Positions 37,728-41,747 of a stretch of 64,000 nucleotides of DNA are shown here, piece after piece. Within the stretch, counting starts at the first letter, position 1. Every line of letters begins with the position of its first letter. The notes beneath the pieces are model-generated. The model saw only the letters and a list, made by a program, of their open reading frames with translations. It ran no database searches and was not told where the DNA came from. Made by a program: the position numbers and the translations under genes. Origin of the DNA: Bdellovibrionales bacterium. GTDB lineage: Bacteria > Bdellovibrionota > Bdellovibrionia > Bdellovibrionales > UBA1609. The stretch spans positions 833,271-897,270 of the forward strand of contig OZ252021.1 of assembly GCA_965247685.1 (NCBI GenBank), in the 5' to 3' direction.

Positions 37728-37928
37728 GTGAAATAAGATTGCATTATTCTATATTTAAAGTCTTTTGAGGTCAAAGGGGAGGTGACGGAAAGCTAGAGTT
37801 TTCTAAGATTGTTTTTATTTGAAGCACGATCTGAAAACACTGCTCATGACAGAAACACACGGTTCAAAAGCCCTTCAAAGCCCTTCGTAGTATGAAAATT
37901 TTATCTCTAAAATCTATTAAAAGTGAGG

Positions 37929-37956
37929 TTGACCAATAGGATATTAAGAGTATAAT
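37929..37956 (+). promoter_or_regulatory. Near-consensus sigma-70 promoter upstream of the 16S rRNA
   Basis: TTGACC-N16-TATAAT, about 180 nt upstream of the mature 16S 5' end. Confidence 0.6.
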
Positions 37957-38134
37957 AACGAGTCTTTTCGTTCTTTGAAAACTGAATAGTCACTTAAAAA
38001 TGGTTTCGGGAACCTGTCGAAGAGTTCTTTAGGGAGCTCCGAGATATTGGTTTTGATTTTTTTCACATATGTCTTTTTTTAAGACAATGTGATTGTTTTT
38101 TTATTATATTTAAGAGCTAGTTAAAGTTCTTCTT

Positions 38135-39646
38135 TTATTGGAGAGTTTGATTCTGGCTCAGGATGAACGCTGGCAGCGTGCTTCATACATGCAAGTCGAA
38201 CGAGAAAGCCCCTTCGGGGGTGAGTATAGTGGCGCACGGGTGAGTAACGCGTAGGTAATCTGCCTCGAGGTGGGGAATAACTAATCGAAAGGTTAGCTAA
38301 TACCGCATAATATCTCTTTATTTCCATATAGAGAGATTAAAGATTTATCGCCTTGAGATGAGCCTGCGTCCGATTAGCTTGTTGGTAGGGTAAAGGCCTA
38401 CCAAGGCGATGATCGGTAGCTGGTCTGAGAGGATGATCAGCCACATTGGGACTGAGAACGGCCCAGACTTCTACGGAAGGCAGCAGTAGGGAATATTGCA
38501 CAATGGGGGAAACCCTGATGCAGCGACGTTGCGTGAGTGATGAAGGCCTTCGGGTTGTAAAGCTCTGTTTTTAAGGAACAAAAAAATGAGTGTACTTAAA
38601 GAGAAAGGACCGGCTAATTTCGTGCCAGCAGCCGCGGTAAGACGAGGGGTCCAAGCGTTATCCGGAATTATTGGGCGTAAAGCGGGTGTAGGTGGCTTTG
38701 TCAGTCAGGAGTGAAAGCCTCGGGCTTAACCCGAGAAGTGCTTTTGATACTACAAGGCTTGAGTTAGGGAGAGGATAGTAGAATTCCTGGTGTAGTGGTG
38801 AAATACGTAGATATCAGGAGGAATACCAGAGGCGAAGGCGTCTATCTGGCCCAACACTGACACTGAGACCCGAAAGCGTGGGGAGCAAACAGGCTTAGAT
38901 ACCCTGGTAGTCCACGCCGTAAACGATGGACACTTGGCGTTGATGATTTGACCTCATCAGTGCCGGAGCTAACGCGTTAAGTGTCCCGCCTGGGGAGTAC
39001 GGTCGCAAGATTAAAACTCAAAGAAATTGACGGGGGCCCGCACAAGCGGTGGAGCATGTGGTTTAATTCGACGATACGCGAAGAACCTTACCTGGGTTTG
39101 ACATCTGGAGGAAGATTCTTGGAAACAAGATTGCCTTTTAGGCCTTCAGACAGGTGCTGCATGGTTGTCGTCAGCTCGTGTCGTGAGATGTTGGGTTAAG
39201 TCCCGCAACGAGCGCAACCCTCGTGTTTAGTTGCTAACATTCAGTTGAGCACTCTAAACAGACTGCCGGCGTAAGCCGGAGGAAGGTGGGGACGACGTCA
39301 AATCCTCATGGCCCTTATATCCAGGGCTACACACGTGCTACAATGGCTGATACAGAGAGAAGCAAAACCGAGAGGTCGAGCAAATCCCACAAAGTCAGTC
39401 TCAGTTCGGATTGTAGTCTGCAACTCGACTACATGAAGTTGGAATCGCTAGTAATCGTGGATCAGAATGCCACGGTGAATACGTTCTCGGGCCTTGTACA
39501 CACCGCCCGTCACACCATGAAAGTTGGTCGTACCAGAAGCCGTTGAGCTAACCTTCGGGAGGCAGACGTCCAAGGTATGGTTGATGATTGGGGTGAAGTC
39601 GTAACAAGGTAGCCGTAGGGGAACCTGCGGCTGGATCACCTCCTTT
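38135..39646 (+). rRNA. rrs: 16S ribosomal RNA
   Basis: 5' ttggagagtttgattctggctcag. Universal blocks gtgccagcagccgcggtaa, ggattagataccctggtag (here g-c-ttagat...) and gtacacaccgcccgtc. 3' ggatcacctcctt anti-SD. About 1.51 kb. Confidence 0.97.
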
Positions 39647-39830
39647 TTAAGGAGTAGGGTTTTCTTTCTGTAAAGAAGGAAAACTTTAGGTCAAACCGAA
39701 ACCGGTGGCTTTTCAGTTTTGAGAGAATGCTTTTTGCATTTCCTATCAAACTTTATACAAATGTAAATTTATTTTTTAATAATAAAGATCTTTTCCTTTT
39801 TGTTCAAAAGATTCATAATAAAAAGGAAGT

Positions 39831-40400
39831 ATGAAGACTCTAAATAAATTTTTATTTTCTATTTTTTATCTTTCAATTATATTTTTGCTCACGAATTGTG
39901 CTTCCTCAGAAGATTGGAGAGATGCTTCGAGAGCATCTGCTAACATTGCTCCACTTCCTCAAGAAACAAAAGATGCTATTGTGCATGTGTATGCTGCAGC
40001 ATTGTGGGGAATTAGAGGTCGTTTTGCGGATCACACATGGATTGCTACAAAAAAAACTGGAGCTTCTAGTTATAAAGTCTACGAGGCAGTAGGTTGGAAT
40101 AAAGACCGAGGAAAGAATGCTTTGAGTGTTTTGTATGATATACCGGATAGGCTGTGGTATGGGAATCAACCAAAACTTCTCTTTAAGTTGGAAGGTAAAG
40201 AAGCAGAACCTGTTGTGGACAGAATAGAAGAGCTGGCAAAGAGGTATCCTTACAAATCGGAATACACTATATTCCCTGGACCTAATAGTAATACTTTTAC
40301 AGCTTGGATGATTTGTCAGATTCCGGAACTCGATCTGAAACTTTCTAAGAGAGCTATTGGTAAGAATTATTTAGAAGATTGTGAATTTTCCAAAAGGTAG
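39831..40400 (+). CDS. Putative lipoprotein (resembles DUF3750 family)
   Basis: 189 aa with lipobox LTNC and an AGGAAG RBS. WRDASRAS...VHVYAAALWGIRGRFADHTWIATK resembles DUF3750 proteins; this is from memory and unverified. Confidence 0.55.
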   Translation: MKTLNKFLFSIFYLSIIFLLTNCASSEDWRDASRASANIAPLPQETKDAIVHVYAAALWGIRGRFADHTWIATKKTGASSYKVYEAVGWNKDRGKNALSVLYDIPDRLWYGNQPKLLFKLEGKEAEPVVDRIEELAKRYPYKSEYTIFPGPNSNTFTAWMICQIPELDLKLSKRAIGKNYLEDCEFSKR

Positions 40401-40439
40401 TTTTTTTGAAAGAAGTTCTCAAAAAGAGGAATAAGGTCA

Positions 40440-41219
40440 ATGAAATATATTATTATATTGTTTTTGTGGATATGTTTATCTTGTGCTTCTCAAACGTCGC
40501 CTGATTCTCAAACGTCGGCTCATAAAGATGCAGAAGCTCAAGAAGTGAATCCAGAAGAAAAAGAAAAGGCCTCTTCTACTCAGAGTTCAAAAGATTCCTC
40601 TTCTTCACAAAAAACTTTTGTTGTCCCTTTTCAATCTGATCAGTGGCATTCTTTAGAGTATAGCTCCATTCCTTCTCATGAAGTTACATTTGCATCCGAT
40701 CATATTCAAATTAAAGTACGAAGTTCAGCTTCTCCTTTGATTTATCCTATGAAGGATAACCCGCTCCTTGTGAAGCAAGTTTCTATAAAAGGAGTTGTGA
40801 GTCAGTTACTCAATATCTCACCTGCTGAAAAGCAAGGGGAGAAAGGGCTCGATGATTTTAATTTAAGAGTAGGTTTAGTTTTGCTAGGTGCAAAACGACT
40901 GGAGTGGTATCAAAAGCTTACGGCTGCAGACTGGATTAAGCAAATGTTTGCACTAGCACCAAAAGATCAAGGTATTGATCATGTATATTTTCTTAATGGT
41001 GTTTTATCTCCTTCTTTAGTTAATAAAAAACGCACACACCCATTATCCAAATATATTAAAGAACATTATGTTTGGTTGATGAATCAATCAGGAGTTTTTG
41101 ATTATACCTATACTCTTGAGCAGCCTCGAAAGACGGTTGCCTTATGGATATCTGTAGATGGAGATGATACAGGCTCTAACTTCGACCTTAAAATCAATAA
41201 TATCACCCTCTTTAAGTAA
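40440..41219 (+). CDS. Putative lipoprotein (possibly DUF3047-like)
   Basis: 259 aa with lipobox LSCAS, a Ser-rich linker and a beta-rich C-terminal domain. Confidence 0.5.
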   Translation: MKYIIILFLWICLSCASQTSPDSQTSAHKDAEAQEVNPEEKEKASSTQSSKDSSSSQKTFVVPFQSDQWHSLEYSSIPSHEVTFASDHIQIKVRSSASPLIYPMKDNPLLVKQVSIKGVVSQLLNISPAEKQGEKGLDDFNLRVGLVLLGAKRLEWYQKLTAADWIKQMFALAPKDQGIDHVYFLNGVLSPSLVNKKRTHPLSKYIKEHYVWLMNQSGVFDYTYTLEQPRKTVALWISVDGDDTGSNFDLKINNITLFK

Positions 41220-41309
41220 GGGTCTTAAGGGGATTTTTTGATTGTAAAAGAGTTAAAAAAATCCTTTACTTGATCGAGATATATATTCATTATGTGAAAC
41301 CGTAAATAC

Positions 41310-41386
41310 GGGCCTGTAGCTCAGTTGGTTAGAGCACACGCTTGATAAGCGTGGGGTCAGAAGTTCGAGTCTTCTCAGGCCCACCA
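41310..41386 (+). tRNA. tRNA-Ile (anticodon GAT), CCA encoded
   Basis: GGGCCTG-TA-GCTC-AGTTGGTTA-GAGC-A-CACGC-TTGATAA-GCGTG-GGGTC-AGAAG-TTCGAGT-CTTCT-CAGGCCC-A-CCA. Confidence 0.93.
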
Positions 41387-41747
41387 TTTCTTTTTTAAGT
41401 ATTTAACATTACTGATGGTTTTTATCTGGTATTCCGTTGTTTCGTTTCCTTATTAAATAGATTAAAAGCTTTTGTAGTTTTTTTGCTGTGTCTCTACTCA
41501 AGAGAGCTATCACTTTAGTATGCCTTTCTTTCAATTTAAAAGTTTAACAAAGTGAGAAGTCTTTGTTGCCTCTTCATAAGAAGGGACTTTTTATTTATTG
41601 ATCCTAGAGAACTTGGCGGATGATCGTTGTGTTGTAGTATGAAAATTTTACATGGATCATTCTTCATTCTTGACGTTAGAAGAGTATACTGTACATTATA
41701 CAAAGTCTTATTAGGTTTTTTATATTTTCTTTACTAAGGGTGTTGAG

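Follow-up and report, generated by a model that had tools for sequence, protein, structure and literature searches.

The stretch of DNA analysed here, 64 kb long and called the window below, lies on a contig of 1,280,446 bp (GC ~33%), and its host is an uncultured, small-genome Bdellovibrionales-like bacterium. On its plus strand the window carries a complete 16S ribosomal RNA (rRNA) gene at 38135-39646 (Rfam RF00177, 1580.7 bits, model positions 1-1533). It is followed on the same strand by two open reading frames (ORFs), a DUF3750-family gene at 39831-40400 (189 amino acids, aa) and a gene called ORF2 at 40440-41219 (259 aa), and then by an intact transfer RNA (tRNA) gene, tRNA-Ile with anticodon GAT/GAU, at 41310-41386 (ARAGORN; Rfam 73.7 bits), which starts 1.66 kb past the 16S 3' end. 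The genes sufB, sufC and sufD lie upstream of 16S at 34145-37339. RNA genes were called with Rfam and ARAGORN, which gave just one more in the 64 kb, tRNA-Arg(TCG) at 31707-31782. Rfam detected no 23S, 5S or tRNA-Ala gene on either strand of the window, in line with the first-pass annotation of this DNA, which had described a 16S gene without a linked 23S. From the window limits, the nearest possible 23S gene lies at least 22.3 kb downstream or 38 kb upstream of 16S, a distance that exceeds the 1500 bp by which Brewer et al. define unlinked rRNA genes (bioRxiv 10.1101/705046). Even at a permissive threshold (E<=1), Rfam gave no trace of tRNA-Ala, 23S or 5S in 37300-41800, and no hidden tRNA-Ala or 23S relic came to light in the 360-nucleotide (nt) non-coding stretch after tRNA-Ile.

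Through homologues of the ORFs we obtained four closer genomes on long ENA contigs, L081 (1.16 Mb), L082 (1.11 Mb), L083 (1.37 Mb) and L085 (0.37 Mb), and examined 20 kb of each; five-genome comparisons below are of the window with these four. Their contigs belong to the ENA records ERZ25069281 (contig_3), ERZ25070530, ERZ25070248 (contig_2) and ERZ22155170. The order sufB-sufC-sufD, 16S, DUF3750, ORF2, tRNA-Ile(GAT) is found in all four relatives, with 16S genes 96.7-97.8% identical to that of the window and an identical tRNA-Ile sequence. Neither 23S nor 5S is present in the 20 kb examined per relative, and none lies within about 9 kb downstream. The best explanation overall, and in our judgement a very probable one, is an unlinked (split-operon) 16S locus in a small-genome Bdellovibrionales-like bacterium, with the following features.

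37929-37956, plus strand: 16S promoter (TTGACC, 16-nt spacer, TATAAT)
37957-38134, plus strand: 16S leader of ~170 nt with internal hairpins (alignment and predicted folds)
37971-38009, plus strand: 5' strand of the predicted leader-trailer helix, pairing with 39696-39727
38135-39646, plus strand: complete 16S rRNA gene (Rfam RF00177)
39656-39687, plus strand: conserved trailer hairpin (five-genome consensus fold)
39696-39727, plus strand: 3' strand of the predicted leader-trailer helix, invariant except at 39698 and for one change in L083
39831-40400, plus strand: DUF3750-family putative lipoprotein, 189 aa (Pfam PF12570)
40440-41219, plus strand: ORF2, putative lipoprotein of 259 aa with a lectin-like or carbohydrate-binding-module (CBM)-like domain (Foldseek, homologues)
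41208-41242, plus strand: terminator-like hairpin and T-run straddling the ORF2 stop codon, in the window only
41263-41293, plus strand: promoter-like element before tRNA-Ile (conserved motif)
41310-41386, plus strand: tRNA-Ile, anticodon GAT (ARAGORN, Rfam)
41387-49526, no strand assigned: 8.1-kb stretch of this genome only, absent in the four relatives and outside the conserved unit

All elements named in the first-pass annotation are there, and their coordinates agree with those it gave either exactly or to a few bases. It had also raised misassembly as a danger to its reading. As a rival explanation, a collapsed or chimeric join could have put protein genes in place of the spacer and 23S, since metagenome assemblies typically break at rRNA operons. 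Against this, the trailer-DUF3750 and ORF2-tRNA-Ile junctions recur in the four other long assemblies, which are independent and come from different samples, these genomes are diverged (protein identity 50-72%, synonymous divergence dS>1), and the trailer strand of the helix, beyond 16S, has one change that compensates a change in the leader. As five independent assemblies share the junctions, we consider an assembly artefact ruled out for practical purposes.

The 16S promoter, leader and predicted leader-trailer helix

The 16S promoter consists of TTGACC (37929-37934), a 16-nt spacer and TATAAT (37951-37956). It matches the consensus at 11 of 12 positions and is the top promoter-like site in the region, and a site at the same relative position is the sole 11/12 match in each of the four relatives. 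Both hexamers are invariant in the five-genome alignment, so that the near-consensus promoter proposed for this position stands; the sequence upstream of it is unalignable. From the position of the -10 hexamer, transcription would start near 37963. Only two positions in the first ~60 nt of the leader vary across the five genomes, and conserved leader hairpins are predicted in every genome. Leader, trailer and promoter together are ~96% identical while synonymous sites are saturated (dS 0.5-2.0, mostly >1), and most intergenic sequence cannot be aligned among the five genomes.

A boxA-like motif, CGTTCTTTGAAA, lies at 37969-37980 and overlaps the 5' strand of the helix. Compared by eye, without scoring, it shares the core G-Y-U-C-U-U-U-R with the Aquifex 12-mer GGCUCCUUGGCA and with the E. 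coli rrn BoxA (both sequences from PMC3177189). A literature search for the leader motif TTCTTTGAAAAC gave nothing relevant.

Co-folding of leader and trailer predicts a helix of 30 bp in four segments (37971-37976/39722-39727, 37978-37986/39712-39720, 37988-37994/39704-39710 and 38002-38009/39696-39703). The complementary flanks reported in the first pass, amounting to 16 bp, were recovered at 37971-37986/39712-39727 and are thus extended to 30 bp. The length exceeds the threshold of >17 bp for a 16S processing helix (PMC10250234). The same helix is predicted independently in each of the five genomes, in keeping with the earlier proposal of a processing helix around 16S alone, and all 150 cells of the alignment (30 pairs in five genomes) can form standard pairs; shifting the partner strand by 1-3 columns lowers this share to 35-61%. 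One pair, 38007/39698, is compensatory, being C-G in two genomes and U-A in three, and one further pair turns G-U through an A-to-G change on the trailer strand of L083.

The trailer is almost invariant from the 16S end to 39728 in the five genomes. Its hairpin at 39656-39687 comprises 16 pairs; 8 of these show one-sided changes (G-U/A-U), and there is one compensatory change. A scan of Joint Genome Institute (JGI) metagenome contigs gave zero matches to a conserved 20-mer of the trailer. All five genomes keep the hexamer AAGGAG, which in the window is at 39649-39654, 3 nt past the 3' end of mature 16S. Its complement is the anti-Shine-Dalgarno sequence CCUCCU, which it could mask in the precursor. 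The small hairpin of AAGGAG with the anti-Shine-Dalgarno sequence was flagged as terminator-like in L082 and L083.

The two putative lipoprotein genes and the probable origin of the layout

The protein of the first ORF matches Pfam DUF3750 (PF12570) with E 4e-45 and 154.1 bits against a gathering cut-off of 25, covering profile positions 2-128 of 128. It has 92 homologues, and its five orthologues show a ratio of non-synonymous to synonymous substitution rates (dN/dS) of 0.12-0.26 at dS>1. The AlphaFold2 (AF2) model has a predicted local distance difference test (pLDDT) score of 93.6; its fold matches are weak and non-significant (the papain-like hydrolases CLN5 and TseH, E ~0.1). ORF2 has no Pfam match and 75 homologues, down to E 1e-25, with dN/dS 0.16-0.48 over the five orthologues. 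Its AF2 model (pLDDT 88.1) predicts a disordered linker and a C-terminal beta-sandwich of ~200 residues, for which Foldseek gives an amylase-inhibitor lectin, CBM15 and legume lectins (E 2e-4 to 1e-3). PDB sequence searches returned only spurious signal-peptide matches to designed proteins. With dN/dS below 1, the Pfam match and the numbers of homologues, we regard both intervening ORFs as real genes, a point on which the first-pass annotation had wished for assurance.

In all five orthologues of either gene a hydrophobic N-terminus followed by a cysteine is kept, L-[TVA]-[NSG]-C in DUF3750 and [LFI]-S-C in ORF2. This fits putative lipoproteins with non-canonical lipoboxes, and the two lipoprotein genes before tRNA-Ile(GAT) that had been proposed recur in the same order in five genomes. 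Neither protein has an evident link to translation.

Outside the four relatives the genes are found apart. In L084, a 1.6-Mb genome, DUF3750 lies on the opposite strand between rpsJ and fusA (8722-13091); rpsJ is the start of the S10 ribosomal protein operon there, and DUF3750 is again beside highly expressed translation genes. ORF2 lies beside a gene of ~1550 codons and near the gene for the CCA-adding enzyme in L086, L087, L088 and L091, and in other contexts in L089 and L090; 16S, DUF3750 and tRNA-Ile are not near ORF2 in any of L086-L091. In L001 the sufD-to-MGMT interval contains typA, a dihydroorotase-like gene and others, and no rRNA or tRNA gene. As DUF3750 and ORF2 lie elsewhere, apart, in these more distant relatives, we take the layout to be derived, and the block sufBCD-16S-DUF3750-ORF2-tRNA-Ile to be fixed in a genus-level clade. 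This also favours the earlier view that the protein genes were inserted. As the outgroup contexts differ, it seems that 16S, the two relocated lipoprotein genes and tRNA-Ile were brought together between sufD and MGMT before the five genomes diverged from their ancestor. The tRNA normally found in the 16S-23S spacer is tRNA-Ile(GAU), and it is therefore plausible that the tRNA-Ile here is a leftover of the ancestral spacer.

Among 185,579 species genomes, the best SufB matches are uncultured Bdellovibrionales and Pseudobdellovibrionaceae metagenome-assembled genomes, the top one at 84% and on a 1.40-Mb chromosome. Because the best identity is only 84%, the lineage is not among the GTDB species representatives. 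A DUF3750 search of the GTDB species genomes gave no relative, and 16S lies within 10 kb of sufB in none of the 80 Bdellovibrionales-type loci from the SufB search.

Both edges of the 16S unit gain and lose genes, as judged from variation in the sufD-16S interval and after tRNA-Ile. The interval between sufD and the 16S promoter (37340-37928 in the window) varies between genomes. In the window a small putative lipoprotein gene (37344-37727, 127 aa) lies there on the minus strand, opposite to 16S, with a divergent promoter-like site at 37774-37746 (TTGACC-17-TAGAAT). L081 has two large ORFs of 1240 and 590 aa (2351-7846) and L083 a MAPEG-family gene (7608-8015) in this interval; L082 and L085 have nothing.

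Downstream, genes for an MGMT-type methyltransferase and triose-phosphate isomerase follow tRNA-Ile almost directly in the four relatives. In the window these two genes are at 49527-50716, beyond the 8.1-kb stretch 41387-49526, which is absent in all four and has a GC content of 29-31% over most of its length. The 360 nt of non-coding DNA and the unrelated genes described after tRNA-Ile are thus present, with the addition that they are the edge of a genome-specific stretch. It holds three secreted-looking ORFs without Pfam matches at 41748-44708 and three paralogous minus-strand genes at 44974-45786, 46004-48496 and 48692-49222. The paralogous genes have ~24 tandem repeats of 105 nt (35 aa), shared signal-peptide N-termini and weak saposin-like matches. 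A tRNA-targeted integrative element is unsupported: the tRNA 3' end is not duplicated, and a scan of five of the six ORFs in the stretch gave no Pfam domain, integrase included. A short tblastn match to the L081 'MGMT' at 41351-41416 was set aside, as it arises from an MGMT gene call that overlaps the tRNA.

Transcription signals downstream of 16S

In none of the five genomes does a terminator-like site separate the 16S trailer from DUF3750. For this reason we propose read-through from the rRNA promoter, by which the lipoprotein genes would be co-transcribed with pre-16S, and we rate the chances for and against it as about level. In L082 and L083 the gap from the helix to the DUF3750 start codon is ~55 nt, and no promoter-like site scores there.

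The alternative is that the units are strictly separate, with a monocistronic 16S transcript ending at a Rho-dependent or other non-canonical signal, and with promoters of their own for DUF3750-ORF2 and for tRNA-Ile. The two observations just given tell against it. In its favour, all five genomes have by inspection a -10-like hexamer (CATAAT, TATGAT or TACAAT) 6-13 nt before the DUF3750 start codon, for which reason the lipoprotein genes may have their own promoter. Weak promoter-like sites matching at 9 of 12 positions are also present in the window, L081 and L085, but such matches are no commoner than in shuffled sequence. L082 and L083 are without a Shine-Dalgarno sequence before DUF3750 (about 9975-10000; window equivalent 39812-39830), and together with the closeness of the -10-like hexamer to the start this suggests that the DUF3750 mRNA may be leaderless or have a very short leader.

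Signals further downstream also speak for separate units. In the window a terminator-like stem of 9 pairs (hairpin at 41208-41232), followed by ATTTTTTGAT, begins within ORF2 and spans its stop codon; it has no counterpart in L081, L082, L083 or L085. About 45 nt before tRNA-Ile a 13-nt motif, CCTTTACTTGA(T/C)C, is kept in all five genomes amid an otherwise unalignable spacer. It contains a -35-like hexamer and scores as TTGACC-17-CATTAT in L081 and L085, and by inspection reads TTTACT-17-CATTAT in the window. Because this promoter-like motif is conserved in five genomes, tRNA-Ile probably has its own promoter. Parallels exist in other bacteria, where the unlinked 16S precursor of Helicobacter pylori is monocistronic and about 2 kb long (PMC6582327) and the tRNA-Ile of Borrelia is transcribed independently of 16S (PMC3037291). 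Taken together, we see strictly separate units as a serious possibility, falling somewhat short of an even chance.

A further step from read-through would be a hybrid unit. The lipoprotein mRNAs would then be the 3' tail of a pre-16S transcript made from the rRNA promoter by an antitermination-modified polymerase, RNase III cleavage would free this tail, and expression of the two putative envelope proteins at the cell surface would be tied to ribosome synthesis. In the relatives without the terminator the tail would in addition take in tRNA-Ile, the MGMT-type gene and triose-phosphate isomerase. We offer this speculatively and think it rather unlikely as a whole.

The split-operon reading and comparison with known systems

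For the split-operon locus that we prefer, in which 16S is probably an autonomous unit, we propose the following course. An ancestral 16S-tRNA-23S-5S operon would have been broken during genome rearrangement. The helix, being required for 30S assembly and for processing by RNase III, would have been kept, tRNA-Ile would have stayed behind with its own promoter, and the two lipoprotein genes would have moved in from separate places. Polymerase from the rRNA promoter would often read through into the lipoprotein genes, and pre-16S would then be parted from the RNA downstream of it by cleavage at the helix.

Several points weigh against this account. The term unlinked rests on the absence of 23S and 5S from the 64-kb window, out of a 1.28-Mb contig, and from ~9 kb downstream in the relatives. 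The -10-like hexamers before DUF3750 detract from read-through. Covariation in the helix is thin: 28 of the 30 pairs are the same in every genome, 54 of 500 column shuffles score at least as high as observed, and the sample is five closely related sequences with one compensatory pair. In the window alone, the duplex energy of leader against trailer has a z-score of only -1.9, which is modest against chance; since long AT-rich sequences fold well against shuffles, we replaced it by a score of the ungapped part of the helix, which 19 of 1000 dinucleotide shuffles reach (p ~0.02). The predicted helix is nevertheless well supported by conservation and position, the comparative evidence being the main one, and covariation is no proof of it. 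Likewise, near-invariance against saturated synonymous sites argues for constraint and is not proof of pairing.

The scope of 64 kb out of 1.28 Mb also leaves room for an orphan extra copy of 16S, with a canonical 16S-tRNA-23S-5S operon elsewhere in the genome. Such mixed genomes, with both linked and unlinked rRNA genes, reportedly came up in a survey of unlinked rRNA. However, the contigs with the locus are 1.1-1.4 Mb long in four of the five genomes (0.37 Mb in L085), and genomes of this size as a rule have only one set of rRNA genes. An extra copy also sits poorly with the top-scoring conserved promoter, with a processing helix that appears intact and under strong constraint, and with the presence of tRNA-Ile(GAU), the usual spacer tRNA. 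We find an orphan copy improbable.

The split-operon locus adds to the known break-ups of rRNA operons a well-documented case from a previously undescribed small-genome lineage of Bdellovibrionota. The break-up can be followed here at fine scale, with 16S promoter, leader and predicted helix frozen while synonymous sites saturate, and with genes moving in between 16S and its probable former spacer tRNA-Ile. A practical consequence is that long-amplicon profiling over 16S, internal transcribed spacer (ITS) and 23S will miss this clade. If the lipoprotein genes should be co-transcribed with pre-16S, the locus would be a natural system in which to study the making of an mRNA from an rRNA transcription complex.

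Some side observations concern the genome and its way of life. Proteins consisting almost wholly of ankyrin repeats are encoded in the window at 982-2316 on the plus strand (Pfam Ank, E 9e-99), in L087 at 18948-20543 and in L091 at 10806-12266. These proteins, together with the small genome and low GC, hint at a clade that is associated with eukaryotic hosts, living alongside or within them. The genome of ~1.3 Mb also has a type II CRISPR-Cas locus on the minus strand (12652-14270 and 15611-18838), with an array in which a 36-nt repeat (GTTTTGATTGCACTACAATTTCCTATATGATAAAAT) occurs 25 times, once every 66 nt. Beside the array is a Cas9 of 1075 aa with Pfam matches to HNH, RuvC and the Cas9 alpha-lobe, and an ORF at 14651-15601 lies between array and Cas9.

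The first-pass annotation had held the locus to be unusual, which was an overstatement since the literature records unlinked rRNA genes from 30 phyla. Most such pairs are >6 kb apart (bioRxiv 10.1101/705046), and the arrangement is associated with symbiotic, reduced genomes (PMC7761764). The present locus falls within the definition of these surveys, and fits the association with small, host-associated genomes by its 1.28-Mb contig, its GC of 33% and its ankyrin-repeat proteins. It differs in belonging to an uncultured lineage without a close match among GTDB species representatives (best SufB 84%), and Bdellovibrio is not named in the main text of bioRxiv 10.1101/705046 or PMC7761764.

Three well-studied systems are closest. 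In H. pylori 16S lies apart from the 23S-5S cluster, and RNase III cuts the flanking stem of the stand-alone 16S precursor (PMC6582327). Shared with the present locus are a lone 16S with its own promoter and a long leader-trailer stem, here predicted, around 16S only. H. pylori however belongs to another phylum, and its monocistronic precursor has a 454-nt leader as against ~170 nt here, where 16S is succeeded on its own strand by protein genes and tRNA-Ile, with no detectable terminator. Borrelia burgdorferi has 16S-tRNA-Ala, tRNA-Ile and two 23S-5S sets in three transcription units (PMC3037291). It likewise has a broken operon with spacer tRNAs near 16S and uncoupled from 23S, and its tRNA-Ile is transcribed alone; but its 23S is a few kb away, 16S is followed by tRNA-Ala and the opposite strand carries tRNA-Ile, whereas here 23S is at least 22 kb away, tRNA-Ala is missing, and tRNA-Ile is on the same strand with two lipoprotein genes in between.

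Active 30S subunits of Escherichia coli depend on a leader-trailer helix of more than 17 bp, which is essential for them (PMC10250234). The present locus is like E. coli rrn in its strong sigma-70-type promoter, in a leader motif that by eye resembles boxA, in a predicted helix of the 25-40-bp class around 16S and in tRNA-Ile(GAU) downstream (PMC10250234). Unlike there, no 23S or 5S follows, 1.66 kb with two protein genes lies between 16S and the tRNA, and the boxA-like motif is within the helix strand and not upstream of the helix. What sets this locus apart is the pair of conserved putative lipoprotein genes that separates 16S from tRNA-Ile, together with the lack of a detectable terminator. 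In other respects it is one more case of the known pattern of unlinked rRNA genes, a tidy example and not a new kind of system.

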